64,000 nt of DNA from a virus (Duplodnaviria > Heunggongvirae > Uroviricota > Caudoviricetes): the IMG/VR virus record IMGVR_UViG_2687453623_000004, one strand, 5' to 3'. Below, piece by piece: positions 15,027 through 57,710 of the stretch. The notes below the pieces were generated by a model. That model searched no databases and had not been told where the DNA came from. It was given only the letters and a program-made list of their open reading frames with translations. A program made the position numbers and the translations under genes. Position 1 is the stretch's first letter. Every line of letters begins with the position of its first letter.

Positions 15027-16276
15027 TTATGGGAAACCTGAATGAAACAGAAAAGTGGGAAGAAAATATCTATCAACTGGAGACATCAGATCCGGTTCTG
15101 GGTGGTGCAGACGGGATATCAAATCGAGCCCCCCGGCAACTGGCAAACAGGACGAAATGGCTGAAGAAGAAAACGGAGGAAGCCGCACAGTCACTGGCTG
15201 AACACGTACGTTCCCGTAACCACCCGGACGCGACACTGACAGCTAAGGGGTTCACCCAACTGAGCAGTGCCACCAACAGCACCTCTGAAACGCTGGCCGC
15301 CACACCAAAAGCGGTCAAGGCTGCATACGACCTGGCAGCCGGCAAGGCGCCTGCCAGCCACACTCACCCGTGGAGTCAGATAACGGGAGTGCCTGCGGCT
15401 TCACTGACGGCAAAAGGCACCGTACAACTGAGCAGCGCCACGGACAGTCAATCAGAAACTGAGGCTGCCACGCCGAAGGCGGTCAAGGCTGCATACGACC
15501 TTGCAGCCGGCAAGGCGCCCGTCAGCCACACTCACCCGTGGAGTCAGATAACGGGAGTGCCTGCTGCCTCGCTGACGGCAAAAGGCACCGTACAATTGAG
15601 CAGTGCCATCAACAGCACGTCTGAAATACTGGCCGCCACACCGAAAGCGGTCAAGGCTGCATACGATCTGGCAAACGGAAAACAACCGGCAGATGCCACG
15701 CTCACTGCTCTGGCAGGACTTGCCACTGCAGCAGATCGGTTGCCTTATTTTACCGGAGCAGACCGCGCAGAGCTGGCAACCCTTACAGCTATTGGTCGCG
15801 CTATTATCGCTAAGGGCAGTATAAAAGATGTCCTCAATTACCTTGGTTTGGGGGAAGGCTCGGCGCTGCCCGTTGGTGTACCTGTTCCGTGGCCCACTGC
15901 CACACCGCCAGCAGGCTGGTTAAAGTGCGACGGGCGCGCCTTTACAAAAGAACAATATCCTGTTCTGGCCAGAGTCTACCCGACCCTCCGTCTTCCCGAT
16001 TTACGCGGTGAGTTTATCCGTGGATGGGACGACGGGCGAAAAGTGGATACAGGGCGCGATCTGCTTTCACGGCAGGATGGTACAAGTTTTTCTCATTACG
16101 CAGGTAATTTTGACATTGGGTCTGGTCATTCAATCAATAACTATGACCAAATCGTTGACAACCAACCTGGATTCTCCCGTTTTTCATTTGCAGGTCCTTC
16201 GCGAGGCGATGGGGTTAATTATGTGACCATTCGTCCCCGTAACATTGCGTTTAATTACATCGTAAGGGCGGCATAG
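15023..16276 (+). CDS. tail fibre protein (constant region fused to variable cassette 1)
   Basis: 417-aa ORF; N-terminal collar motif ([23 protein letters not shown]…PKAVKAAYD) shared with P2 H at 39747..42371; three tandem ~56-aa repeats; C-terminus ends [11 protein letters not shown]. Confidence 0.8.
   Translation: MIMGNLNETEKWEENIYQLETSDPVLGGADGISNRAPRQLANRTKWLKKKTEEAAQSLAEHVRSRNHPDATLTAKGFTQLSSATNSTSETLAATPKAVKAAYDLAAGKAPASHTHPWSQITGVPAASLTAKGTVQLSSATDSQSETEAATPKAVKAAYDLAAGKAPVSHTHPWSQITGVPAASLTAKGTVQLSSAINSTSEILAATPKAVKAAYDLANGKQPADATLTALAGLATAADRLPYFTGADRAELATLTAIGRAIIAKGSIKDVLNYLGLGEGSALPVGVPVPWPTATPPAGWLKCDGRAFTKEQYPVLARVYPTLRLPDLRGEFIRGWDDGRKVDTGRDLLSRQDGTSFSHYAGNFDIGSGHSINNYDQIVDNQPGFSRFSFAGPSRGDGVNYVTIRPRNIAFNYIVRAA
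15236..15700. repeat. three tandem ~168-bp coding repeats inside the tail fibre gene
   Basis: Protein block LTAKG(F/T)(T/V)QLSSA…[12 protein letters not shown](A/N)GK… occurs three times consecutively; DNA copies start near 15236, 15404 and 15572. Confidence 0.8.
15831..15856. other. putative invertase crossover site 1 (gix/hix-like), at the constant/variable junction of the fibre gene
   Basis: Sequence …caattaccTTGGTTTgggggaagg…; homology with the inverted copy at 17874-17899 begins exactly here; central ACCTTGGTTT resembles the AAACCAAGGT core of hix-type sites as I recall them. Confidence 0.4.
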
Positions 16277-16294
16277 AAACGTTGGTTTGGGGGA
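16269..16294. other. putative invertase crossover site 2 (direct orientation)
   Basis: …tagaaacgTTGGTTTgggggaagg… immediately after the fibre stop codon; near-reverse-complement of site 3. Confidence 0.35.
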
Positions 16295-16748
16295 AGGCTC
16301 TGCATTGCCTGTTGGTGTACCGGTTCCATGGCCCACCGCCACACCGCCAGCAGGCTGGTTACAGTGCAACGGAGCTACGTTCACCAAAGAACAATATCCT
16401 GTTCTGGTCAGAGTCTACCCGACCCTCCGTCTTCCCGATTTGCGCGGTGAGTTTATCCGTGGATGGGACGGTGGTCGCAAGGTTGATACCGGGCGTGCGC
16501 TACTTTCATTTCAGGAAGGGACTATCGTATCCGGTTTTGATGATAATGATACCGGAGATATCAGTTCGCTCGGCTCTACACAATACGGATTTGGTGACGC
16601 TTTAACCTCTAATCAACTGGGGGTCTTAAATGGCAAAAAGTGGATATTTGATGCATCCTCTAAAGGTGCACAAAGATATGACTGGTGGGCTTATGTATCA
16701 GCTCGCCCCCGCAATATCGCATTTAACTATATCGTGAGGGCGGCGTGA
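16287..16748 (+). CDS. silent alternative tail-fibre C-terminal cassette (variable cassette 2; no ATG, no RBS)
   Basis: 153-aa frame starting at TTG; encodes (L)GEGSALPVGVPVPWPTATPPAGW…[11 protein letters not shown], a paralogue of the C-terminal ~140 aa of the expressed fibre. Confidence 0.5.
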   Translation: MGEGSALPVGVPVPWPTATPPAGWLQCNGATFTKEQYPVLVRVYPTLRLPDLRGEFIRGWDGGRKVDTGRALLSFQEGTIVSGFDDNDTGDISSLGSTQYGFGDALTSNQLGVLNGKKWIFDASSKGAQRYDWWAYVSARPRNIAFNYIVRAA

Positions 16749-16754
16749 TACCGT

Positions 16755-17369
16755 TCAGCCGGCAAGCGCCAGTGGCGCTTCCGGCCAGCTGATTTCAGGT
16801 GCCTTGCTGATATCCAGTGCGTTCAGCTCGTCGATATAATCCAGCACGGCGTTCAGTTTTGCCGTTTCTTCTGGTTTCAGACTGCGACCAGCACGCAGTT
16901 TGAGGTTGATAAGATCGACGGACGCCATCGCCTGTTTCACCCGTTGCTGGCGTTGCTGTCTGGCAACCTCCAGTTCTGCGGCTCGCTGCCGTTCAGTATC
17001 GGTTACCCACGCCTCACCGTTCCAGGTATCCCATGGCGTGGCTGGCTGTTTTGTGGTGGTGTCCGCCGGGTAATCACCCGGTTGGGTAATCAGAACGGGG
17101 TTACCGTTCTCCGTGCTGTATACCGTCTCGCCGCGGTGATCAGGCACATGCTCCCACCCGTTCAGCGTGGCAGTCCGGCAAACCACGTAACCCGAAATTG
17201 CTTCCGGCGGTGCATCGGCGCACGAATGTGCCGGAGTACCCACCCCAAGGGCGAGATACTCCACAGAGGATGAGGTGTATTCCCGGGTTTCCTCGTCATA
17301 GTGATATACAGTGATATCGCCCGCTACAGTGGCGATACCGTTTTCATCCAGAACTGCAGTGTTACTCAT
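16755..17369 (-). CDS. tail fibre assembly protein (Tfa, Mu U'-like)
   Basis: 204-aa ORF; C-terminus …ELNALDISKAPEISWPEAPLALAG typical of Tfa chaperones; start overlaps the stop of inverted cassette 3. Confidence 0.75.
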   Translation of the reverse strand: MSNTAVLDENGIATVAGDITVYHYDEETREYTSSSVEYLALGVGTPAHSCADAPPEAISGYVVCRTATLNGWEHVPDHRGETVYSTENGNPVLITQPGDYPADTTTKQPATPWDTWNGEAWVTDTERQRAAELEVARQQRQQRVKQAMASVDLINLKLRAGRSLKPEETAKLNAVLDYIDELNALDISKAPEISWPEAPLALAG

Positions 17370-17851
17370 TAAACTGCCCTCACAATGTAATTAAGTGCAA
17401 TGCTACGGGGTCTGACAGTGATACCCTTCGCATACCCGCTTCTGATAGAGGTCAGAATAGTAGCCTGCATACCATTGTCTGACATTGCCACGACAGGATC
17501 GCTGAATGTTGTCCCGTCCGGCATTTTAAAGCTGCCCTCACGAAGGTCTGTAATGGAATCTTCATTGTTGAATCCCATGCCGACTATCCCCGAGGTTCCC
17601 GTAGTGTCCTGGTTATAATAATCCAGCATTGCTGTTCTTAACAGCGTTGCCCCTTGTGCGGACAGCAACTTACGTCCTGTATCAACTTTGCGCCCGTCGT
17701 CCCATCCACGGATAAACTCACCGCGTAAATCGGGAAGACGGAGGGTCGGGTAGACTCTGGCCAGAACAGGATATTGTTCTTTTGTAAAGGCGCGCCCGTC
17801 GCACTTTAACCAGCCTGCTGGCGGTGTGGCGGTGGGCCACGGAACAGGCAC
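17369..17851 (-). CDS. alternative tail-fibre C-terminal cassette 3 (inverted, promoterless; Mu Sv'-like)
   Basis: 160-aa frame on minus strand with GTG as first codon; first ~64 aa nearly identical to cassette 1; upstream frame closed by TGA just beyond the crossover site. Confidence 0.6.
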   Translation of the reverse strand: MPVPWPTATPPAGWLKCDGRAFTKEQYPVLARVYPTLRLPDLRGEFIRGWDDGRKVDTGRKLLSAQGATLLRTAMLDYYNQDTTGTSGIVGMGFNNEDSITDLREGSFKMPDGTTFSDPVVAMSDNGMQATILTSIRSGYAKGITVRPRSIALNYIVRAV

Positions 17852-17886
17852 ACCAACGGGTAGCGCCGAGCCTTCTCCTAAACCAA
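17693..17886. repeat. inverted repeat (~194 bp) matching 15844-16037
   Basis: Reverse complement of 17693-17886 is almost identical to 15844-16037; delimits an invertible segment of ~2.0 kb. Confidence 0.85.
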
Positions 17887-17899
17887 CGTTTATCTCTCA
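17874..17899. other. putative invertase crossover site 3 (inverted orientation)
   Basis: …ccttctcctAAACCAAcgtttatctc…; boundary of the inverted repeat, ~55 bp upstream of the invertase gene. Confidence 0.4.
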
Positions 17900-17952
17900 A
17901 ATCCTCCCCACATTATCTCAGTACTTTAACCACTCAAAAGGGAGTATTTTTA

Positions 17953-18525
17953 ATGCTGATTGGCTACATACGTGTGTCAACAAATGACCAAAACACAGAT
18001 TTGCAACGCAATGCATTAATGTGCGCAGGATGTGAACAGATTTTTGAGGACAAAATGAGCGGAACCAAGTCGGAACGACCAGGCCTGAAACGCGCTTTAA
18101 AGTGCCTTAAAAGAGGGGATACATTGGTGGTCTGGAAGCTGGATCGGTTGGGTAGAAGAATGAAACACCTCATTGCTCTCACAGAAGAGCTACGCGCAAA
18201 AGGTGTCAATTTTCGCAGTCTGACGGATTCAATCGATACCAGCACTCCGATGGGAAGGTTCTTTTTTCATATGATGGGTGCACTGGCAGAAATGGAGCGT
18301 GAACTGATAGTTGAGCGCACGCTGGCTGGACTGGCTGCTGCGCGAGCACAAGGAAGAGTTGGAGGACGTCGCCCGAAACTGACGAAGGAGCAGCATGAGC
18401 AGATCGCAAGATTGCTCCAGAAAGGGTATGACAGAAAGCGGCTGGCAATTATCTATGATATTGGACTGTCAACGATCTACCGCTATCACCCTGTTGGGAC
18501 TGTCATAACGCAACCTGAAATGTAA
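17953..18525 (+). CDS. serine DNA invertase, Gin/Pin/Hin family
   Basis: 190 aa from ATG 17953 with RBS aaagggag upstream; MLIGYIRVSTNDQNTDLQRNAL… and C-terminal HTH (…YDIGLSTIYRYHP) closely match recalled Gin/Pin sequences. Confidence 0.85.
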   Translation: MLIGYIRVSTNDQNTDLQRNALMCAGCEQIFEDKMSGTKSERPGLKRALKCLKRGDTLVVWKLDRLGRRMKHLIALTEELRAKGVNFRSLTDSIDTSTPMGRFFFHMMGALAEMERELIVERTLAGLAAARAQGRVGGRRPKLTKEQHEQIARLLQKGYDRKRLAIIYDIGLSTIYRYHPVGTVITQPEM

Positions 18526-27795: not shown

Positions 27796-27822
27796 ATGTC
27801 AGTTATTGGTGACATTTTTTGA
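27796..27822 (+). pseudogene. pflA: 5' remnant of pflA (PFL-activating enzyme) truncated at the prophage junction
   Basis: RBS ggag then ATG TCA GTT ATT GGT (MSVIG, the recalled PflA N-terminus), followed by GAC ATT TTT TGA instead of the continuation RIHSFES…; divergence begins at 27811. Confidence 0.55.
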
Positions 27823-29880: not shown

Positions 29881-32327
29881 TTAACCGTCATGCATCATGC
29901 TGGCACGGGCGCGCGCTCGTTTATCCCGCTCGTATTTTTCGAGCGCATCCTGTAACTGGCGGTCGAGCTGTGTCCCCGGCGCAGTACCACCCGTCAGGCT
30001 GATGTGATATTCGTTTTTACTCTGGTCTACATAAGAGCGGCCAGCCGGTGCCGTGACCGGCTGATAAGCCTGATAACCTGCATAAGAGCTGGTCGCCGGA
30101 ATATAACCACCGCTGCCATACGTGGCGGCTTGAGTTCTGGCGGCGGTCTGGTCAAGTGTGTCTGACTCTTTGTTGATAACACCGAGTTTTTCCAGTACCC
30201 AGTCAATACCACTGCGCAGTTTGTTGAACGCATTAAGCGGCAGCATCAGCGCGTCAGCCAGTGCCTGCCCGAACATGACGCCCGTGTCACGGCAACGGTT
30301 CAGGGTGTCCTGGGTGGCTTTGACCGGGGCAATCAGGTTTTTAAACCACTGCCACGCGGCCTGTAACTTTTCACCCAGCCAGTCAAACACCGGTTTAAGT
30401 GGCGTGAACAGTTCCCCCACCGGCGTAAATGCCGCTTTCAGCCCTTCCACCACACCGCCAAAGAATGCGCTGACAGGCTCCCAGTATTTACGGATAAGCA
30501 ACGCCCCGGCGACAATGGCGGCCACCACGGCCACAACCGGCCAGCTAATCGCCCCGATGGCGGTCATAACAGCACTGCCAACCGTCGTGAAGATTGCCCC
30601 CATTGCGCCTGCTGCCGCGATGATGGCATTGATGCCGGTGATAACCGGCCAGGCTACGAGGCCAATGGCACCGATGACACCAATCAGTGCCAGTGCACCA
30701 CCGACAATGATGCCGATGGTTGACGCCAGTGATTTGTTTTTCTGGATCCAGCCGTCGAGTTTTAACACATACTTTGTGGCCGTCTGCGTGAGATTACGCA
30801 GTGCGCCTTCCTGCTGGTCAAACAGGTCAGTCCCCACCGCCTCATAAGCGGACTGAAACTCCTTAAAGTCACCGCCGAGGTTATCCTGCATGATTTTAAC
30901 CAGCTCTTCCGTTTTACCGTCCGAGGCTTTCAGCGTGGCGGTCAGCTTATCCAGTTTTCCGCTTGCTGCCGCTGCCAGTAAAACGTTCGCTGATTTCAGG
31001 GCTTCCTCACCAAAAATGGTTTTAAGGTATTCCCCCTTCTGAGACGTTCCCAGCTTGTGTTTATCAAAGCTGGCCTGAATCTCTTTCAGAATGGTGAACA
31101 ACGGACGCATATTTCCCTTTTTGTCCGAGGTTTTAACGCCAAGCTCTTTGAGTGCATCCCATGCTTTTCCAGTCGGTGCCTGTAATCGGGTGACAACGGC
31201 ACTACTACCCGTACCCGCCATTGACCCCCTGATGTTATTGTCATGCAGCACACCTGTCATGGCCGCTGCCTGCTCAAGACTTACGCCTGCCGTCCTCGCA
31301 ACCGGCCCGAGGTAAGTCAGTGCATCACTGAGTCCCTGAAAATCAGCGCCGACTTATTCATCGTTGCAGACAACACGTCGCCCACATGGCTGACATCATC
31401 ATTTGACAGTTGAAAGGATGCCTTAGTCCCCAGCAACAGTTGCGCGTTTTCTTCCATCGACCGCTGATTCGCCAGTGCCATATTCAGCGTGACCGGCGTT
31501 GCCGCCTGAATAGCCGCAGCATCTCCACCCGCTTTCGCAATGATAATCTGCGCACCGGCCGCATCATCCGCCGAGGCGGCTGTGTTGTCACCGAGCTGGC
31601 GCGCCTGTTTGCGGAGTGCGGTCATTTCGGCGGAGTCTTTTGCCACTCCGAGCACGGCCTGCAATTCTGAGTTTTTCTGCGCAAACTCATAACCGGGCAT
31701 CAGCAGCTTAACTCCGGCCATCGTTCCCGCAGCAGCAATCCCCGCACCGGCAGCGCCCACTGAGGCCATATTTCCGGCCAGTTCCTTTCCTGCCTGATAA
31801 CGCTGTTTGACTGCGTTAAGTTTTGCCTGTTGTACACTGACACGCGCCAGCGCGTCACGCTGACGGTTAAGCTGTGCGGTGGTTTCACTGATACGGTTTT
31901 TCAGTCCCTGCTCATCATGTGCAAGATTGCGGGTATTAATTCCCACAGCGGCCAGTTCTCGCTGCTGGCGTTTAACGGAATCTGTCAGGCGGTTATATTT
32001 CGCCTGTAAGTCCTCCGCCGCACGCTTTGCGGATTCCAGCACTTTCGCCTGAGCACGGGTCGGACGTTCGGTGTTTTTAAACTGTGTGGCAAGGGCTTCG
32101 GCTTCCTGTCGAGCCTTTTCAAATGCATGACCAGTCACGGCGAGCTGTGCACTGGTCTTGCGGAATCCCTCAATACGGGATGCGTGACCGTTCAGCTCGC
32201 GCAGTGATTTTTGTGTTTCCCGGATATCCCCCGACAGCGACTTGCTCGCTGTACGGATGGATTTAAACGGGCGGGATGCCTGGTCAACAGCCCTGAGCAA
32301 TACCTGTAATTTTACATTGTTACTCAT
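29881..32327 (-). pseudogene. T: tail tape measure gene T, interrupted by a frameshift (two ORFs: 31317..32327 and 29881..31353)
   Basis: N-terminal 336-aa ORF ends with TGA at 31317-31319 while the C-terminal frame is open from 31353 down; the two frames overlap by ~35 nt; combined length ~810 aa fits P2 gpT. Confidence 0.6.
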
Positions 32328-34836: not shown

Positions 34837-35313
34837 CTATATGTTACTGGGATTATTAAAAGGGATAATACTGGCCAATCCGTCATCAACATCAAGACCA
34901 TAGGTAACCGCTATTTCTGCCAGAGAGTTACCACACTTTTGTCGCAGTTTAAAAAGGGCTCGCTCAAGTATGGATATTTGAACAGGATGATCAAGTTGGA
35001 TAAAGTGAGGGGAGCCAACGCTGTCACAGAATTCTTGGCATGCTTTTCTCATTTTCCTTAATTGTTTTGCTAAATGTGAATCGCTCGGCAAACCTTGTAG
35101 GACTTTAGTCAATTCAGATCTAATGTTGATAACACTCGAAGTGCAATGACTAGCACCCTCCATGTCGACAGGATTGAAAAGAACGCGCTTGTCCTCAAGA
35201 AAAATGACGATCTTCTTCGCTTCGTCAGTTTCTATTATTGGAGCATTCCACTGAATCCCGAATATGGGACAGCTAAGGCCAGTAATATTTTTATAGATTT
35301 GTTCAAATTTCAA
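34837..35313 (-). CDS. hypothetical protein, accessory cargo at the P2 Z/fun position (no family recognised)
   Basis: 158-aa ORF MKFEQIYKNITGLSCPIFGIQWNAPIIETDEAKKIVIFLEDKRVLFNPVDMEGASHCTSS… in a visibly AT-rich block unlike the surrounding phage genes; own terminator downstream. Confidence 0.55.
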   Translation of the reverse strand: MKFEQIYKNITGLSCPIFGIQWNAPIIETDEAKKIVIFLEDKRVLFNPVDMEGASHCTSSVINIRSELTKVLQGLPSDSHLAKQLRKMRKACQEFCDSVGSPHFIQLDHPVQISILERALFKLRQKCGNSLAEIAVTYGLDVDDGLASIIPFNNPSNI

Positions 35314-35571
35314 AAGTCACTCCTTGGATGGACTCTGAGCATATAAAACGCCATACTGATAAACGGACTCGGTTCAAGTAATCTGTTAGATAGCATAACT
35401 CGGAACCACTGTAAAAATAGTTGTTAACATACCTAAAAGTGACAGCGGAGGCAAGATTCCCTCAGCCGGAGCGATAAATTAGGCATAAGTTATACACACA
35501 TTAGTAATAATCACTAAAGATATTCTAATTTTTTATGCCGACTTAATATGATTTCCCGTCAATCAGGTTAG

Positions 35572-35597
35572 CGTCCGCTCCTGGCACAAAGCGGACG
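35572..35597. repeat. hairpin-containing ~26-bp element, copy 1 (cgtccgctcctggcac aaa gcggacg)
   Basis: Perfect 7-bp stem CGTCCGC/GCGGACG; the first 16 nt recur exactly at 36495-36510. Confidence 0.6.
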
Positions 35598-35753
35598 AGG
35601 TAACTGAGCTAAAGGTCCGCTGTGAGCGAAAAGTGGACATTAGAGTTACAAAAGTAAGTTTAAATCATCCAAAATATTACAATATCCTTATCTATCTGAT
35701 ATTGTTATGATAAAAAGTTCCTGAATATAATCGATAGTAGGTGGTTATTTTCC

Positions 35754-36131
35754 ATGAAATCAATTTTAGAGGTTTTTACTCAAGGAAATACTAAAGAAAA
35801 ACTGGCTGTTATCGCTGATCTCACAACCATTGCGGGAATATCGATAGCAACTATTATTGCTGGTTTGTTAACCCTAGTTGCAAAAACAGATAAACTAGAT
35901 GTTGGAAATCTGTTTGGAGTTGTCATAATATCTCTGCTCGGATTGGCTGGTGTTTGCTGTTTTATGGCCCTATTTATTTGGGTTATAACCCAAATGTCTA
36001 AACCATGGGGAACACCTCGGGGGATTCAGTCCTTAGTTAAGTGTGCTATTTCCCTTATCTTTATCTGTATTTTTTTGCTGGCTGTCTTTACATTTTATGA
36101 GGTTATTTCTTCGATGAGAATACTCTATTGA
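35754..36131 (+). CDS. small multi-pass membrane protein, accessory cargo (no family recognised)
   Basis: 125-aa ORF with RBS ggtgg upstream; three or four hydrophobic helices (…IAGISIATIIAGLLTLVA…, …GVVIISLLGLAGVCCFMALFIWVI…, …AISLIFICIFLLAVFTFY…). Confidence 0.55.
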   Translation: MKSILEVFTQGNTKEKLAVIADLTTIAGISIATIIAGLLTLVAKTDKLDVGNLFGVVIISLLGLAGVCCFMALFIWVITQMSKPWGTPRGIQSLVKCAISLIFICIFLLAVFTFYEVISSMRILY

Positions 36132-36580: not shown

Positions 36581-37105
36581 TTATTGCGGCATTTCTGGCC
36601 ATTCTATATCCGGAGCATTTTCCGGCTGAACGCGATTCAGTAGCACACGGTATTTTTTCCAGTGTGTCAGGCTTAACTTTTCTTCCTCGGTAGCCATATC
36701 TAAATCGACAGCATCCTGCAGAGTGCCAATAATTTCACCGGCATATGCAATCTGCTCTTTCTTCTGAGACTCCGCCGCTCTGACAAGTGCATCATGCTCT
36801 GCATTCTCATCATTCACCCACGCATTTCCGTTCCATTTCTGATAATCCCCATCCGGGGAAATGGCTGTCACGTCTGGAGGTAATGCACCAAGTTCAGAAA
36901 TATAAATGGCTGCTCCCGTTTTCGTTTCGTAGACAGTCTTTCCGCGATGATCTTCCATCAACTCCCATTTCATTTCATCTGCATTGAAAACGGCTGCATA
37001 ACCAGCAGGAATATCAGGTGGTGCAATATCTGTACTGTTTGCAGGCAGACCTGTATGCGGCGGAATATATGCATCACTTTCGCCAATAAACTCATTGGTT
37101 GCGTA
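36581..37105 (-). pseudogene. G: tail fibre assembly gene G, 3' fragment (175 codons, no start codon), separated from its 5' end by an IS element
   Basis: Frame open from TAA at 37106-37108 down to the stop at 36581; encodes …[57 protein letters not shown]…DIEWPEMPQ, the conserved Tfa body. Confidence 0.8.
37093..37099. repeat. 7-bp target-site duplication (CATTGGT), copy flanking the lower-coordinate IS end
   Basis: cattggt immediately precedes the IS terminus tgcgtatt… at 37100; identical heptamer follows the other terminus at 39681-39687. Confidence 0.7.
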
Positions 37106-37184
37106 TTACCGTGAAGGAGATCGGTGAGTAACATCGATGGAGATCGGTTCGTGTCACTTTCACAGAACCGTTTTTAAATTACCT

Positions 37185-37934
37185 TCACTGATCTCCTTCG
37201 GTCAACGGAGATTGTATTTTCCGCATTGATTCTCCTTTAAGTTCGATCTTGATACTGCCATGAACCAGTCGATCTAGGATGGCATCCGCATGTGTGGAGT
37301 CTCCGATCATTTTGTACCAGTTTTCCACCGGCAACTGGCTCACTACGATGATTGAGCCTCGTTGGTACATCAGATCCACTATTTCCAGCAGGTCGCTACG
37401 CTGTTCTGATGAGAGAGGTTCCAGCCCCCAGTCATCCAGAAGCAGCAGATCGCTATTATTCAGCCTGGTCAAAAGTTTGCTGTATCTTCCATCAGCATGC
37501 CCCTGATAGCACTGTTCCATCAGCGCTTTAAGGCGATAATAGTAGACCTTGTATCCCTGTCGGCAGGCATTATGACCAAGTGCACATGCCAGGAACGTTT
37601 TACCGCTGCCGGTGGCCCCGGTCAGTAAAATATTTTGTTTCAGGGTTAACCAGTTTCCCTGACTGAGTGAACGGATGAGGGCCCTGTCCAGCCCTCTATT
37701 GTTACGATAATCCAGCTTTGATAACTCAGCATTAAGTCTGAACCGTGCATGTTTGATCAGACGCTCTGCCTTCCTGTTTTCACGGCAGGTTAGTTCTTCT
37801 GCTGTCAGTAATGACAGGCGTTCTTCGAAGCCCAGCTCCTGGTATGTGCCCGGTTGAGCAAGTTGCTTTTTAAGCGCATCACGGAAGCCGGTGAGTTTAA
37901 GTGCGGTCAGTTGTTCGTAAAGATGATTCATCAT
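37185..37934 (-). CDS. istB: IS21-family transposition helper ATPase IstB
   Basis: 249-aa ORF with Walker A motif (LLTGATGSGKTFLACALG) and Walker B-like LLLLDDWG. Confidence 0.9.
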   Translation of the reverse strand: MMNHLYEQLTALKLTGFRDALKKQLAQPGTYQELGFEERLSLLTAEELTCRENRKAERLIKHARFRLNAELSKLDYRNNRGLDRALIRSLSQGNWLTLKQNILLTGATGSGKTFLACALGHNACRQGYKVYYYRLKALMEQCYQGHADGRYSKLLTRLNNSDLLLLDDWGLEPLSSEQRSDLLEIVDLMYQRGSIIVVSQLPVENWYKMIGDSTHADAILDRLVHGSIKIELKGESMRKIQSPLTEGDQ

Positions 37935-37945
37935 TGGATCCCGTA

Positions 37946-39487
37946 TCAGTGGTAATACTCACTGCCGCGTACGTTTTCGTGTTCCATCGTGGATAACAGA
38001 TCTGGTTTTGGATCCTGAACAGGTTGTTTATCCAGACCTTTTTCCAGGATCGATTTAATACCTGACAGACGCCATACCTTTGTTTTCAGAGCTCTTGCAC
38101 ATGCTGCATTAAGTCTGGCTTTACTGTATTTTTTATGAAGGTTCAGGAGTCCAAGGCAGAAGCGATAGCTTTGTTCCGGATGTGGACGAGAGTTCAGTAT
38201 ATGAAGCACATAACTATGAGTTTCACTGCCTATGTGCCCCGCCCATTCCAGAAGACGCTCTGGCGTCCAGGTGGCATGCTGTCGATGAGCTTCAGGCATG
38301 TGCTCGTTGCGGGTACTGTAGCCATAAGTACGCTTGCGCGGGTGCACAGCAACCTCCTGCCCCTGATTGAAGAGTCTTACCAGTTCTCCGGAGATCCATG
38401 CTTCCAGTTGCTGGCCTAACAGCGAACATGGAACCGAGTAGTAATGTTTGTCGATTTCCACGTGGTAATCGGCATGAACTCTGACTTTCTTCACCAGGGT
38501 GTAACTGTAACTGGCTTCAGGAAGAGGCTTCAGTGCGGGTTTATCAAGCTGGATGAAGAGTTCTGCACGTGAATAACCCAACTTCTGCATTATTTTGTTA
38601 TTCAGTCTTTCCAGCAACTCCCGAATGCGCTGATTAAGCGATGCAAGGCTGTAGAAGATCTCATGCCTGATTCGGGCCATGATCCAGCGTTCAACAACCT
38701 GAACGCCAACTTCAGCTTTGGCTTTATCTTTCGGTTTACGTGGCCGCGCAGGCAAAACTGCGACATTATAATGCTCAAGCATCTGCTGGTAGGTAGGGTT
38801 AACGTCAGGATCATACTTACATGCCCTGGATGTGGCGCTTTTCAGATTGTCCGGAACAACAAGTTCAGGAACGCCACCCAACCACTGGAAGCAGCGAACA
38901 TGACTCATCACCCAGTCTTCAAGCTGCTGAGACCAGGTGGCCTCTGCCCATGTGTAACTTGATGCCCCGAGAACAGCTACGATGACCTGAGCAGTTCTTA
39001 TTTCTCCGGTCTCAGGGTCGGTAACGCCAACGGTAGGTCCACAGTAATCAACGAAAAGTTTTTCGCCAGCTTTATGTACCTGACGCATTGATGGTGAAGT
39101 GGTTTTGAGCCATTCACGGTACATCCGGCAGTAATGGTTATAGCTGTAAAAACCGCCTGGATTACGCTCACAGTATTCTTCCCAGAGTAGCTGCAGCGTC
39201 ACGCATTTATTACGCAGTTCCCGGTGTACTGTAGCCCAGTCAGGCAGAGAGTGCTTCTTCATCTTAACCTGGGTCTGAAGGAACGCATGTTTTAGTTTTG
39301 TATCATCCCATCCTGTAGGTAAGGGCCACTGCTTTATGCCAAGTTGAGCCGCCCGATTAGCATATCTGGATACAACGGAAGGGGAGATTGCAAGACTACG
39401 ACCAATTTGTCGATGGCTGAGTCCAACACCGTATTTAAGCCTAAGAATTTCTTTAAGTTTTCTCATAGAAATTGGAACTGTTGGCAT
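37946..39487 (-). CDS. istA: IS21-family transposase IstA
   Basis: 513-aa ORF with N-terminal HTH (…LSHRQIGRSLAISPSVVSRY…) and DDE-type catalytic core; followed 12 nt later by istB. Confidence 0.9.
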   Translation of the reverse strand: MPTVPISMRKLKEILRLKYGVGLSHRQIGRSLAISPSVVSRYANRAAQLGIKQWPLPTGWDDTKLKHAFLQTQVKMKKHSLPDWATVHRELRNKCVTLQLLWEEYCERNPGGFYSYNHYCRMYREWLKTTSPSMRQVHKAGEKLFVDYCGPTVGVTDPETGEIRTAQVIVAVLGASSYTWAEATWSQQLEDWVMSHVRCFQWLGGVPELVVPDNLKSATSRACKYDPDVNPTYQQMLEHYNVAVLPARPRKPKDKAKAEVGVQVVERWIMARIRHEIFYSLASLNQRIRELLERLNNKIMQKLGYSRAELFIQLDKPALKPLPEASYSYTLVKKVRVHADYHVEIDKHYYSVPCSLLGQQLEAWISGELVRLFNQGQEVAVHPRKRTYGYSTRNEHMPEAHRQHATWTPERLLEWAGHIGSETHSYVLHILNSRPHPEQSYRFCLGLLNLHKKYSKARLNAACARALKTKVWRLSGIKSILEKGLDKQPVQDPKPDLLSTMEHENVRGSEYYH

Positions 39488-39680
39488 AGGTATCCTTTAC
39501 CGGAATGGCAAAAGATACAGATCAACACACCTGTGAAGTTCCAATAACATTGATGGAGATCACTGAATAACAAAATGAGTCAAAAGTGATCTCCATCGAT
39601 GTTATTCAGCGATCTGTTCAAATGTTATTACCCGATCTCGATGGAAGTTATTGAGTGATCTCCTTTCATGAAAATACGCA

Positions 39681-39747
39681 CATTGGTTCCATCAAGTAAA
39701 TTGAAAACGCGGATAGTTTGTGCTTCTGCACTCATTCTGAAAGCCAT
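39681..39747 (-). pseudogene. G: tail fibre assembly gene G, 5' fragment (first 22 codons)
   Basis: ATG at 39747-39745 overlapping the H stop; encodes [22 protein letters not shown], then runs into the IS terminus; joining it to the 3' fragment across the IS restores …[15 protein letters not shown]…. Confidence 0.75.
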
Positions 39748-42371
39748 TATGCAAGCCTCACAATATAGTTAAATGCGATGTTTTTGACGGTGTTTTCTGT
39801 ATTACCTGTAGCATTAACGGTAATAGAGTGCCCGTGTGAGCCAATAGCAACCGTGTGTGAATGTGCACCAATACCAACCGTATGATTATGTGCACCAATA
39901 TCTACCGTGTGGGCATGATTCCCGGCAGCTCCTGATGTGCCATTAAACGATGGGTTGTCAAAGCCTGTTTTACCGGTTTCACCATTAGTATTGGCATTCC
40001 CTCTGTAAATGGTATGTGTATGGTTACCAGTGGTATTAGTGGTTTTTGTTCCGTAGTTAAACGTACTGACTGTCTTCGTCCCGTAATCAAACGAACTGGT
40101 TGTTTTCGTTCCCAAATCCGTATTTGACGCACTGGCACTGTGAGTATGCGATTTAATCCCGTCCTGTTCCTGTGACAATACGGCACGCCCACTGGCGGGT
40201 TTGCCCTTGATTGTCCAGCCGCGCATATCAGGAATAACACCAGAAGGATAGGCTATAGCCAGTTTCGGATATGCTGCCTTATCAAACGTCTGCCCCTGCA
40301 TGATTGCATAGCCTGCAGGTGGTGTATCTGATGGCCACGGCAGCGGAACACCAGGCGGAAACGCTTCAATATTTGCCGAGCCGTCAAATTTTACGCCGTT
40401 AATTGTCCTTGCCGTTTTCAGCTTTGTTGCTGTAGCCGCATTGCCGGACAGTTCACCAGAAAGGCCTGCACTGAATGTCTGTTTTGCCTCCCATGTCTGG
40501 GCTTCGTCGATAATTGGTAGCCGACGAATATTGAAGCTACGCTCCCCAGGATTGCCATATAAGCGGACTGTAAAAAAACGATAGTTGGTTTTGTTTGAAG
40601 TGCTGCGCCATACCTGCATTGAACGGGCGACACCTCCGCCTTCACTGGGGCCAACAGTGATATTTATCAGGTTAGTATCAATGACGCCCCATTCCATCCC
40701 ATCGGGAATATTGGTCATATCTGAAAGCCTGACAGTTATCATGCTGCCCGGTATAAAGTCGTAGGTCTGCCAGTCCAGACTGGATAACCTGTCGGTAACA
40801 CCGCCGACACCTAATTTAGTGAGTAATGATTTTGAGTTGTATACTTCCGCCCATTCCCCCCAGTCAGTTTCACCGCTGGCGCGGGTTCGCTGAAATGTCC
40901 GGTTTTTATAGGCATCCGTTGCTGAAACAGTCGTATATGTCTGGATATACGATTCAATATCACAACGTTTTTTCACCTCAACTATTGAGCCAACAGCAAG
41001 ATCTTTAGAGTCGGTGACAGGTGCATTTGTGGCCTGTTTCGTGACGCTATAAATACCAGGCTTTAAAAGGTCATCAAGATCCCCTGAATAAGTCCATCCC
41101 GTGGACTGATACCCAACAGCAATCCAGTCCTCCCATTGTGGATTTTCTGCATCCCATGAGGCTGTCAGTCCGCGAATGTACATAGTCCCACTACGGGTGG
41201 TATAACGTTGCATCCTCCCATACAGACCGCCTTCAAAGACTTCCAGAATACCCTGTCCAAAACTCCCTTCCTCCGGGAAATGACGGTCAAATGAGGCTAT
41301 TGATGTACTGCTATTGCGCCATATTCCCAGGTGTTCCGCACCACCTAAAGAATTCAGGTCAATTGACGTGCTTAATGGGCGAGTCCCGCTTGTAATAGCT
41401 CTCCATGCACTCCATACAGGACTGACAGGGTTCCATTCTGCATCAAGCATCCGAATGTAAATATTACCGGTTCGGGTGGTGTAGCGTTGTGTGCAGTGAA
41501 AGCGACCAGCATTGAATACTTCCAGAACCCCATTGCCTTTATCTTCAGGGTAACCAGACTCTGGTTTTGCAGTGGATTGTGACGGACATGACCACGTTCC
41601 AAGATATTTTTCTTCTGGGCCATAGGAATCAAGATTGTCAGTGGTTGGAATCATTCCATTGTGTTTCATAAACGTCAGGCTGGTAACGCCAATATTGTCC
41701 AGAAAAGCGCCCTTATCTGGAATATCGCCACCGTTCTGGTCTTTCTGCAGACGTTTCTCAGCATTGTCATAGGCTGCTTTTACTGCCTTTGGCGTTGCTG
41801 CCAGCTTTTCACTGGTGCTGTTTGTTGCACTGCTTAACTGAGTAAAACCTTTTTCTGTCAGCGTGGCGTCAGGATGGCGGCGGGACTGCTCATGCTCTGC
41901 GATTTTGTCATCGACGTAATCCTGCGTCGCCATCACTGTGCTGGCATCAATACTCAGCTCAACAGACGCCACGTTACTGACAATAATGACCATGCGGCAG
42001 GTCTGCGCACGCCCGGAGCCTTCAGCCAGTTCAGGCTTATAGCTTTCTGCCATGTTAGCGACCGCAATCAGTGTTCCGGCATCATCATACAGACCAAGTT
42101 CACGCATCCAGAAGCCGCCCACTTCTGGCGGTACAACCAGTTCAGCCACGATATAGTTTTTATTCTTGTTATCCACGCTGACTTTATTCAGAGCGTGACG
42201 CCAGACCTCATGCACCAGTTTCGTCTGACCGGCATCCGGCACCGGCAATTTGCCATTACCGTCACCCACGGCCATTGCAGACAGGTTTACTTTTTTCCCG
42301 CCGGGGACAGTGGCGGCTGCCAGCTTTGCGGCTCCGGCAGTAGTGATAACGGTTTTAAATTTCGTGCTCAT
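39747..42371 (-). CDS. H: tail fibre protein H
   Basis: 874-aa [66 protein letters not shown]… (P2 H-like N-terminus) with His-rich C-terminal repeats ending [11 protein letters not shown]. Confidence 0.9.
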
Positions 42372-54213: not shown

Positions 54214-54232
54214 GTGCTTTCCCCGCCTCGCC
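54214..54232. other. cos: cos cohesive-end sequence (P2-type 19-mer)
   Basis: gtgctttccccgcctcgcc is the reverse complement of GGCGAGGCGGGGAAAGCAC, which I recall as the P2 19-nt cohesive end; ~170 bp beyond Q. Confidence 0.7.
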
Positions 54233-55192: not shown

Positions 55193-55969
55193 CTATTTAA
55201 TACGTATGAAATCTAAAGAGTATTTAATTGATGATTTCGTTGATTGAAACCATTTCAAATGCGACCACTCTGGGCCTGACAATAGAGTCAGTAGCGTTTT
55301 TTTATCTCTTTCCTTCATTCTTAACCCAAAAGCTATAGAATTGACCGCTAAAGGTTCAAATTTCCTTGCTCCAAAATTCTCCACAATCAATCGGCGCTCC
55401 CTTTCATATTTCCAACTTGTGTACTTTGTCGTTAAAATAGAAAGTAAAATATCCCCGCAAATATTATCAAACCCGTTAAGGCATTCATTATCCTCAAAAT
55501 AATGAATACGTTTAACAATATCATCAAAGGGATAATTATCCTGATATTCCACATCTGCTTCCAAAAAAGAAACCCCAGCTTTCTTCAAATACTCCTCTTT
55601 AAAGCCAATGCAAATACCTTTATGTTCATCGGCATAATGTGACCACATCAATTGATTTTTCCTCGCTTTACTAAAGGAACAAATTCCGACTTGCTGCAAT
55701 GACTGTTTAAGATATCTCTCATATTTAATTCTCATATCAAGAGGCAGTGGATAATGTTTCCAAACAGCATCAAGCACATTTGAAAATGAAGAATTTGCTT
55801 CAAAAGGATCATTAAGAGTATCTGGTTTTGCAAACCATAACTCACGATTCAATAACAGCTTCAGATTGTTTTTATCAAACTTACGATACTTAAATAAAAT
55901 TCCTGGCTTTGTTATGTGTATCACATCCTCTCCTGTTAATTCACAATTCTTATTAAAAACAACAAACAC
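55193..55969 (-). CDS. hypothetical protein, possibly DUF2971-like (start may be GTG at 55924)
   Basis: 258-aa frame; segment …ILFKYRKFDKNNLKLLLNRELWFAKPDTLNDPFE… resembles the N-terminal signature I associate with DUF2971; first codon is GTG, and an alternative GTG at 55924 has a better RBS (ggagagg). Confidence 0.45.
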   Translation of the reverse strand: MFVVFNKNCELTGEDVIHITKPGILFKYRKFDKNNLKLLLNRELWFAKPDTLNDPFEANSSFSNVLDAVWKHYPLPLDMRIKYERYLKQSLQQVGICSFSKARKNQLMWSHYADEHKGICIGFKEEYLKKAGVSFLEADVEYQDNYPFDDIVKRIHYFEDNECLNGFDNICGDILLSILTTKYTSWKYERERRLIVENFGARKFEPLAVNSIAFGLRMKERDKKTLLTLLSGPEWSHLKWFQSTKSSIKYSLDFIRIK

Positions 55970-56041: not shown

Positions 56042-56548
56042 CTATAACTTTTCCTCCAATTCTTTTTCGTTTATTACTGTATACAACCTATTTATAAACG
56101 AGACATTTCTCCAAATAAGAACAATAACGCATGACAGTTGAGTCAGTAATATACTCAAGATATATACACAACTCACACCTTTAATAAGGTGACGATTGTT
56201 CGCATAGAAATCCGTACCGCGGAGAACAGCATTAAATGCGTAAAAAGCAATAATAAAAATTAATACAGTAGCGGACATAATGATAATAAGAATCATACCT
56301 TCTATGCGCTTCGCTTCACTTTTGCTTGCTAAAAAATCCACTTTTTCAGATTTCATCAAACCAGCGATTGCATTTGGATAGAGATAAGCTAGCCAAATAC
56401 CAGCAATTGCAAAAATCATCGCGGACGTATTTTGCAAAACACCAAGAAGATCAACAACATATGAATATTTGACGCTTTCTGAAATGCTAAAACCGCCAAC
56501 AAGCAGAACGAAGGCCATGAGAATCCCAATAAGGATCTTTATTATCAC
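56042..56548 (-). CDS. four-helix integral membrane protein (candidate effector), translationally coupled to the upstream gene
   Basis: 168-aa ORF starting with GTG 2 nt after the upstream TGA, with RBS ggagga inside the upstream gene's last codons; four hydrophobic segments. Confidence 0.6.
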   Translation of the reverse strand: MIIKILIGILMAFVLLVGGFSISESVKYSYVVDLLGVLQNTSAMIFAIAGIWLAYLYPNAIAGLMKSEKVDFLASKSEAKRIEGMILIIIMSATVLIFIIAFYAFNAVLRGTDFYANNRHLIKGVSCVYILSILLTQLSCVIVLIWRNVSFINRLYTVINEKELEEKL

Positions 56549-56549
56549 A

Positions 56550-57710
56550 TCATCCTCCTATAGCGACCTCATTGTTATTTCCCGAAGGTATAACTTGAGT
56601 TTTATCAATCTCATAACCATCGAGACCACTTACGAGTTCTTTTCGTTTATCATTAATTAACTCTGCCAATTTCTCAGCCGAGATATGTGCGTTATCATTT
56701 ACAGTATAAGTAGCATTCAAATAATCACGCATAACATATTCATCTAACCACTTAGTCTGCCCATTCTTACCATCCTGTTTGAAGCCGATATTGTTCCAAG
56801 AAGAGCCGAAAGCATAATCCTCTTCATAAAAATCGAAAAGTTCGTCAATTTGCTTTTCAGTTGGTCTTTCTTCAATAATTAACTCTATCTGTCGTTCTTT
56901 ATGAGTCTTAGGTACTTCATCACGTAATACAGGAAATTTATCAAAAGCCTTTACCCACCAAGCTCTTTTATCTGGAACTTTAGCTCCAATTGTATCTCTT
57001 ATTACAATATGTGTTATAGAGTCACGAATCTTCTTTATATTTATACGCCCAGCTTTTTTCATATACTGCTGCGCTTCAAATAAAAATCTTACTCGTGAAC
57101 TTCCGTCATCACTTTCAAATGTAACAACACTAAACTTTATGTCTTTCCCACCTGGATTTGGTCTGCATACTTCTGCAATTTTACGCCCGGGATATGGCAT
57201 TCTGAAATTAGCATAATCTCTAATATAGCGACTAAAAAGATAAGTGTCTGAGTTTGAGTGAGGGAAACGAATTGCAGCAAATTTATTGAACTCAGGGATG
57301 TACCAGTAATAACATGGCTTACCCCAAATATATTTAACCCCATCAGTCATATCATCCGAAAGCATCTTAACGTCACTAGATGATGAATTTACCTGTGAAT
57401 CTGGCGCAACCCCCTGAAGATTACCATTGCCATCAAGTTCTGATTTCCAAAGCACAAAAAAATAATCGCCTGTCTTTTCATCTTTATGCACACCTCGACA
57501 ATAAACCTTTTTCCGCAGTCTAGAGTCATCAACCAATGGTAGGGTTTCTTCAAAAGAACGAGAACAAACCCAGTTGGACAGGGAGTCTAATATATTTACA
57601 ATATCCGTGCTTTTTTGAACTTCATCCTTAAGATTGTAAAAACCAGCTTTCGTTACATCAAAAAATGTTAAGCGCCCTGCTTCTTCAGCCATGATACTAC
57701 CTTGCAACAT
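56550..57710 (-). CDS. hypothetical soluble protein (~380 aa), first gene of a two-gene cargo operon (no family recognised)
   Basis: 386-aa ORF (likely start at the second ATG, 57692, which has an upstream aagg) MLQGSIMAEEAGRLTFFDVTKAGFYNLKDEVQKSTDIVNILDSLSNWV…; ~390-bp AT-rich upstream intergenic region. Confidence 0.6.
   Translation of the reverse strand: MLQGSIMAEEAGRLTFFDVTKAGFYNLKDEVQKSTDIVNILDSLSNWVCSRSFEETLPLVDDSRLRKKVYCRGVHKDEKTGDYFFVLWKSELDGNGNLQGVAPDSQVNSSSSDVKMLSDDMTDGVKYIWGKPCYYWYIPEFNKFAAIRFPHSNSDTYLFSRYIRDYANFRMPYPGRKIAEVCRPNPGGKDIKFSVVTFESDDGSSRVRFLFEAQQYMKKAGRINIKKIRDSITHIVIRDTIGAKVPDKRAWWVKAFDKFPVLRDEVPKTHKERQIELIIEERPTEKQIDELFDFYEEDYAFGSSWNNIGFKQDGKNGQTKWLDEYVMRDYLNATYTVNDNAHISAEKLAELINDKRKELVSGLDGYEIDKTQVIPSGNNNEVAIGG

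Follow-up and report, generated by a model that had tools for sequence, protein, structure and literature searches.

Locus and features of the insertion

The stretch of DNA analysed (the window, 64,000 nucleotides in length) carries a P2-like prophage of the Peduovirus type, with a gene order as in phage Wphi, inserted in pflA, at its 5′ end, in a sub-lineage of E. coli ST131. The 19-nt P2 cos sequence was matched exactly at 54214–54232. A tail-fibre assembly gene (tfa) occupies the position of gene G, the last in the late operon V-W-J-I-H-G, and is split by a complete insertion sequence whose genes are co-directional with the H–tfa operon. The features of the locus are the following:

36581..37099, minus strand: tfa 3′ fragment, codons 21–192 including the duplicated copy; RefSeq pseudogene, "missing N-terminus"
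37093..37099: target-site duplication, left copy, CATTGGT
37100..39680, minus strand: ISEc12 (IS21 family), 2581 bp, complete; 100% identity to RefSeq-annotated ISEc12 copies; IRR side at 37100, IRL side (upstream of istA) at 39680
37100..37166: IRR-side terminus of ISEc12 with repeated GGAGATC(G/A), presumed IstA binding repeats (repeat families D1, I1, I2, I19)
37185..37934, minus strand: istB, AAA+ helper ATPase, 249 aa, intact (Pfam IstB_IS21, E = 2e-67; NCBIfam NF038214)
37946..39487, minus strand: istA, IS21-family DDE transposase, 513 aa, intact (Pfam rve and Mu-transpos_C_2; NCBIfam NF033546)
39543..39680: IRL-side terminus with several copies of GGAGATC(G/A) (repeat families D1, D2, I1–I7, I19)
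39681..39687: target-site duplication, right copy, CATTGGT
39682..39747, minus strand: tfa 5′ fragment, codons 1–22; RefSeq pseudogene, "missing C-terminus"
39747..42371, minus strand: tail-fibre gene H, 874 aa, intact, directly upstream of tfa; same length as H of Peduovirus P24A7b

The element is an insertion sequence of the IS21 family, specifically ISEc12. A shared IS name requires a nucleotide identity of at least 95%, and the name ISEc12 rests here on copies so named by RefSeq/PGAP. This single copy within the window showed no mismatches to the copies at three other sites (loci L005, L006 and L007/L008); ISEc12 is a common, multi-copy element in E. coli, found at a median of three places per genome having any. 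The element starts with TGCGTATT and finishes with AATACGCA, with TG…CA ends; TGCGTATT was read at both ends and GGAGATC(G/A) repeats are present in both, in agreement with the imperfect terminal inverted repeats and multiple internal motifs of the family. Its two genes form a same-strand pair, istA (HTH and DDE) followed by istB, with 11 nt between the istA stop and the istB start. IstA scored 310 bits on NF033546 (cut-off 160) and IstB 270 bits on NF038214 (cut-off 200), the latter with Walker A (GATGSGKT) and Walker B (LLLLDDWG) motifs. On identical DNA, istA is annotated in RefSeq as WP_001298859.1, and the istB start is placed there one codon later. The gene pair and its order, the protein families, the terminal structure and the short duplication were all those of the IS21 family, without any important difference. 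The initial annotation, which had placed an IS21-family element with TG…CA ends and intact istA and istB at 37100–39680, was thus correct in all its sequence statements. Since istA and istB are standard intact alleles, this copy is plausibly still mobile, as its open reading frames and its identity to duplication-flanked copies at many sites suggest.

The tfa gene is interrupted after codon 22, past the first base of codon 23, and is therefore not a continuous, translatable gene but a pseudogene. The joined flanks yielded an ORF of 192 aa, in agreement with the continuous Tfa frame first proposed; the frame is restored by excision of 37100–39687 or 37093–39680 (2588 bp), whereas the interval suggested earlier, 37100–39686, is one base short and breaks it. 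Restored Tfa matched Pfam PF02413 (Caudo_TAP, E = 3e-40) over residues 72–192, a region wholly within the 3′ fragment, and aligned without gaps across the junction to Tfa of Peduovirus P24A7b (97%) and, over its full length, to lambda Tfa (65%). Identity to Wphi gpG was 31%, which points to a lambda-type module in a P2-type genome; the name "gene G" given at first thus holds for the position of the gene, but not for the type of protein. Also in keeping with the Tfa family, tfa lies directly downstream of the 874-aa H, its ATG overlapping the H stop codon (TAATG), an arrangement shared with P2 H–G and lambda stf–tfa. The sequenced P2-like phage P24A7b has an H of equal length and its Tfa in the same arrangement, that is, an intact module without the IS.

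As anticipated, tfa is cut off from its start codon by the insertion. Reading of the 5′ piece continues into the IS, where 22 Tfa residues and 17 IS-encoded residues are followed by a stop, giving a peptide of 39 aa. In the 3′ piece, a stop codon lies in frame three codons ahead of the duplicated copy, and no in-frame restart was found before Met63 (36973), the earliest possible start codon. The insertion is thus predicted to knock out tfa, with probable loss of Tfa function. As tfa is the last gene of the operon, no essential phage gene is exposed downstream to polarity.

Target duplication, empty site and distribution

The 7-bp duplication claimed for both sides of the element was found intact as CATTGGT, a match that by chance would be expected at that exact position with a probability of 4^-7 (about 6e-5). 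Each flank continues with a T, so that a duplication of 8 bp is formally possible; 7 bp is favoured because the TGCGTATT termini are then symmetrical. According to the ISfinder description, IS21-family elements generate direct target duplications of 4–8 bp, and the lengths found for ISEc12 (7 bp in tfa, 5–7 bp at other sites) fall in that range. Insertion sites of ISEc12 were sampled from complete genomes of E. coli. Among the ten sites, the duplication was of 5 bp in six, of 6 bp in one and of 7 bp in two (tfa and one other), and one site had none; 7 bp is thus not the usual length for ISEc12, and 5 bp was the commonest in the sample. Other E. coli insertions of the element with duplications affect ypfH, Ag43, traC and further genes. 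A pattern scan for the IS end, with one genome per species, gave a single match, located at a contig end. In several of the ISEc12 sites a CTC motif was observed 6–9 nt from the IRR end, and AAACTCATT was common to both sites with 7-bp duplications.

The distribution of the insertion was surveyed in 5426 complete E. coli genomes. Each 200-bp junction was present at 100% identity in five complete-genome records, the same number for both sides, and the 400-bp joined flank was found uninterrupted, also at 100% identity, in nine complete genomes. The flanks are therefore contiguous in intact homologues, and mis-assembly, named at the outset as a possible objection, is rejected because the junctions are common to five complete-genome records. 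The prophage of strain SaT040, 99.98% identical apart from the insertion, has the two flanks joined directly, with CATTGGT present once. Strain CU568-3 likewise has an empty site. The insertion is not private to one strain, its carriers having been obtained in Sweden (human blood), from yak and from other human sources. That it is evolutionarily young is supported by the identity of the IS to copies elsewhere and by the perfect duplication; the description of the insertion as "recent" can be kept in this sense, but it is already shared by isolates of these several origins. Both tfa fragments and the IS are already annotated in RefSeq; the paper describing strain CCUG 73778 contains no discussion of prophages or IS elements.

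The tape-measure gene and the probable order of the lesions

A second lesion was located in the same prophage, in the tape-measure gene:

29881..32327, minus strand: gene T, frameshifted by a 1-bp deletion near 31347/31348 (GGCGGCTG to GGCGCTG)

T shares about 97% identity with its P2 and Wphi counterparts and measures 2447 bp, against 2448 bp in phage homologues (deletion at alignment column 981); a premature stop follows at 31317–31319, after 336 aa of about 815 codons. The deletion is not in a homopolymer and occurs in independent assemblies, RefSeq marks T as "frameshifted" in both SaT040 and CCUG 73778, and no slippery site able to restore the frame was seen by eye in the sequence around the deletion. 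T function was probably lost. All prophage genes other than T and tfa are annotated as intact by RefSeq on identical DNA, and the cargo genes are open, as the initial annotation had held; they include the candidate defence genes PDC-S31, PDC-M18 and DUF6650. With T frameshifted and tfa interrupted, the prophage does not have a complete intact set of essential morphogenesis genes.

The T frameshift allele was detected in 17 of the 5426 genomes, compared with five for the insertion. Both loci were checked in SaT040, which carries the T allele with an uninterrupted tfa; both lesions were directly seen in LS4, AH21H052 and CCUG 73778 only. Since the T allele is also present in a genome with intact tfa, the tail defect of the prophage most likely predates the IS, and parsimony, with the five genomes nested in the 17, likewise makes it most likely that the T deletion preceded the insertion.

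Interpretation and comparison with known systems

On these grounds, ISEc12 in tfa very probably represents a second, lineage-restricted lesion in an already T-defective, decaying P2-like prophage whose candidate defence cargo is open. A standard, apparently active copy of ISEc12 would have transposed into tfa, and a staggered cut would have produced the 7-bp duplication. The gene would have been lost in this way, its 5′ piece giving only the fusion peptide and its 3′ piece at most a 130-aa product without a start signal. The prophage would by then, most likely, have been unable to build tails owing to the older 1-bp deletion in T.

The IS is co-directional with the late operon and immediately follows H, so that transcripts started at the P2 late promoter could extend into istA–istB. 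Read-through of this kind might boost transposition of ISEc12 upon activation of the late genes, triggered for example by Ogr or by a satellite/helper interaction, and so couple IS activity to phage gene expression; we regard this as unlikely. A lesser reading, suggested by the CTC motif and the shared AAACTCATT, is that ISEc12 may have an unrecognised target preference; its cut stagger is also flexible, at 5–7 bp.

The initial annotation had presented the insertion as the event that made an otherwise functional prophage non-infective. The clear disruption of tfa, the essential role of the tail-fibre assembly gene G in P2 and the intact annotation of the phage genes apart from T and tfa are in its favour, but T ends after residue 336 (of about 815) through a 1-bp deletion outside any homopolymer, which occurs in independent assemblies, an empty-site genome among them; this proposal is largely refuted and was considered quite improbable.

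The insertion might instead be tolerated or compensated, either by Tfa supplied in trans from another prophage or by the 130-aa C-terminal ORF expressed through IS-derived or read-through transcription. The Caudo_TAP region is whole within the 3′ fragment, related tfa genes are numerous in E. coli (3472 records with the best place at 80–90% identity) and cross-complementation is known, lambda Tfa being able to substitute for T4 gp38. If another lambdoid prophage of this genome encoded a related Tfa, that protein could in principle act in trans, and the loss of tfa alone need not then abolish fibre assembly. Against this, no promoter-like site directed into the 3′ fragment was found in the IS end searched, the first start codon is Met63, with no obvious Shine-Dalgarno ahead of it (by eye), and the window contains just one further tfa, at 32% identity. 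This second tfa belongs to a neighbouring Mu-like prophage, and complementation by its product was judged unlikely at that identity. Compensation was thus considered very improbable, and for infectivity the question is moot because T is broken. Finally, although multi-copy elements such as ISEc12 are a classic source of mis-joins, placement of the IS in tfa by repeat collapse or mis-joining has a negligible probability, given that both junctions are identical in records from different laboratories and that a perfect duplication of a sequence present once in the empty site is the hallmark of genuine transposition.

The closest parallel to ISEc12 as a second lesion in tfa is its insertion in tssM of E. 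coli ST131 clade C/H30 (PMC10711316), which involves the same IS in apparently the same ST131 background. In both cases one insertion interrupts a gene for a structural component of a machine resembling a contractile tail, and both were detected by junction versus empty-site indicator sequences (PMC10711316). The tssM insertion, however, has a 5-bp duplication, ACTGC, compared with 7 bp in tfa, and has reached fixation in clade C (about 99.8% of genomes), whereas the one in tfa was present in five of the 5426 complete genomes. The tssM insertion also disables a system that is complete in other respects (PMC10711316), while that in tfa lies in an already damaged prophage. Insertions of this one element differ in duplication length (5 to 7 bp), and the tfa site adds a further data point.

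The insertion may be considered as ordinary prophage decay, of little significance beyond correct annotation. Its two IS–tfa junction sequences could be used as lineage markers for the small clade of carriers. For E. coli ST131 it also gives a clean, datable case of prophage decay in steps, with a frameshift in T probably followed by an IS in tfa, and agrees with the general view that virion genes erode whereas prophage cargo of use to the host is kept.

The inserted element and its target duplication

The sequence interrupting the tail-fibre assembly gene (tfa) of the P2-like prophage was identified as ISEc12, a known insertion sequence, with the following features:

37100-39680: ISEc12, 2581 bp, starting with TGCGTATT and ending with AATACGCA
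39487-37946, minus strand: istA ORF, 513 aa
37934-37185, minus strand: istB ORF, 249 aa, beginning 11 nt after the 513-aa ORF
37093-37099 and 39681-39687: CATTGGT, directly outside each end of the element

The 513-aa ORF matched the Pfam rve and Mu-transposase C-terminal domains and scored 310 bits against the NCBIfam equivalog 'IS21 family transposase' (cut-off 160 bits). The 249-aa ORF matched Pfam IstB_IS21 (E = 2e-67), scored 270 bits against NCBIfam 'IS21-like element helper ATPase IstB' (cut-off 200 bits), and its product showed Walker A (GATGSGKT) and Walker B (LLLLDDWG) motifs. Both ORFs were open, and the IS21-family element with intact istA and istB and flanking CATTGGT copies, described in the initial annotation, was thus recovered. 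Several copies of GGAGATC(G/A) were present at each of the two ends; multi-repeat termini are the typical architecture of IS21 relatives.

ISEc12, annotated as such, was detected by megablast in 1908 of 5426 complete E. coli genomes, mostly at ≥99% identity, and the window copy, the only one in the window, had no mismatches with copies at three unrelated sites. Its alleles are the commonest IstA (WP_001298859.1) and IstB (WP_001016257.1), and ISEc12 occurs with fresh duplications in many genes of different strains (ypfH, an Ag43 gene, traC, and others), which makes it plausible that this copy is still mobile.

ISEc12 does not usually produce duplications as long as 7 bp. Among ten sampled sites, duplications were of 5 bp at six, 6 bp at one, and 7 bp at two (the window site and locus L006), with none at the remaining one; the tssM insertion of ST131 clade C also has a 5-bp duplication (PMC10711316). 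The stagger is therefore variable, inside the usual range of the family, and the tfa-ISEc12 junction shows nothing irregular. Comparison of window 37075-37099 with loci L004-L008 and L014-L019 showed CTC at 6-9 nt from the IRR end in several targets and AAACTCATT common to both 7-bp sites, which may reflect a target preference. The copy in strain DP033 (L018) had no duplication at its flanks, which suggests rearrangement between copies and not simple insertion.

The interrupted tail-fibre assembly gene

Removal of 37100-39687 restored a continuous frame encoding a 192-aa protein with a Caudo_TAP domain, as predicted in the initial annotation; the excision proposed there, 37100-39686, ends one base too early and leaves the gene out of frame. 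The restored protein aligned gap-free across the junction with the intact Tfa of Peduovirus P24A7b (97% identity) and of phage lambda (65%), whereas its identity to gpG of Wphi, a relative of P2, was only 31%. A Tfa of lambda type thus occupies the place of G in a genome of P2 type. The H gene directly before it is intact (874 aa), and the stop codon of H overlaps the tfa ATG.

The 5' fragment encodes 22 Tfa residues and 17 IS-derived residues before a stop. Upstream of the 3' fragment, an in-frame stop lies three codons ahead of the duplicated copy, and the first ATG, GTG or TTG of this fragment is Met63, so that its product would have at most 130 aa. No promoter-like site directed into the 3' fragment was found at the ISEc12 end. 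As judged from these reading frames, tfa function is lost. Judging by P2 gene order, no gene of the operon follows tfa, and polarity on essential phage genes is therefore not expected.

The 400-bp joined flank was uninterrupted, at 100% identity, in nine complete genomes. In E. coli SaT040 the whole prophage was 99.98% identical and the flanks abut with a single CATTGGT. Each 200-bp IS-tfa junction was found in five records (for the left junction LS4, with two records, CCUG 73778, REF1 and AH21H052). Mis-assembly at the IS boundaries was therefore ruled out, and the insertion is lineage-restricted but not confined to a single isolate. In RefSeq, ISEc12 is flanked here by two partial pseudogenes, the tfa fragments. 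Both the IS and this kind of target are known, and public records already carry the annotation.

The P2-type prophage, its cargo and its neighbour

The prophage is a P2-type element of ~36.3 kb with the IS and ~33.7 kb without it: its genes follow the P2 order from ogr to int, its core genes are ~97% identical to those of P2 and Wphi, and it contains an exact match to the P2 cos sequence.

27798-27810 and ~64091-64103: 13-bp integration core GTCAGTTATTGGT, the second copy just past the window end (7932-7944 of locus L009)
54214-54232: P2 cos sequence
34837-35313: DUF6650 protein, adjoining tfa, candidate defence match
55193-55969: PDC-S31 (DUF2971), PADLOC candidate defence match
56042-57710: PDC-M18B and PDC-M18A, PADLOC candidate defence matches
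15840-16068 and 16277-16507, inverted copy 17661-17891: repeats of 229-231 nt in the Mu-like prophage

Integration took place in the first codons (5' end) of pflA. The native pflA ATG remains on the ogr side, and the RefSeq start is a phage-supplied ATG, adding ~19 N-terminal residues. The variable-region cargo genes are all open, in accordance with the earlier description of the cargo as intact. Between tfa and the sheath gene (34837-36131), the DUF6650 gene is accompanied by a 125-aa ORF that matched no family. The window prophage and that of SaT040 differ at very few positions; at one of these, 35494 in the intergenic part of the cargo, an (AC)n run has one unit fewer in the window than in SaT040. 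At the SaT040 equivalent of window 40856 there is a C6-to-C5 homopolymer change, read by RefSeq as a frameshift in tail-fibre gene H; this may be an error in the sequence or another lesion that arose independently.

The end of the neighbouring Mu-like prophage (15840-18525) is an invertible tail-fibre segment with alternative Collar-domain fibre tips, a Tfa gene and a serine recombinase (Resolvase and HTH_7), in flipped orientation with respect to the CCUG 73778 assembly.

The tape-measure gene and the probable order of lesions

All phage genes other than T and tfa are annotated intact on identical DNA. The tape-measure gene T has lost one base (GGCGGCTG to GGCGCTG) at column 981 of the alignment with Wphi T, outside any homopolymer:

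29881-32327: gene T, 2447 bp (2448 bp in phage homologues)
near 31347/31348: deletion site
31317-31319: resulting stop

T stops after 336 residues, and the remaining 459 codons lie in another frame. The identical allele is present in SaT040, where tfa is intact, and in CCUG 73778, which carries the IS, and RefSeq labels it 'frameshifted' in both. A 41-nt probe in which every 28-mer spans the lesion detected the allele in 17 of the 5426 genomes, compared with five for the IS; among genomes with this allele and an intact tfa, SaT040 is the one checked at both loci.

In the simplest history, T would have been lost first and ISEc12 would have arrived later in a subset of the T-lesion genomes; thus, by the time of the IS insertion, the prophage could very probably no longer make tails. 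The observation in the initial annotation is confirmed and its interpretation is partly supported: tfa is dead as far as its sequence indicates, but the proposal that the IS made the prophage non-infective is not supported, given the T frameshift in 17 genomes, including the tfa-intact SaT040. The ISEc12 insertion is a second lesion in a decaying prophage.
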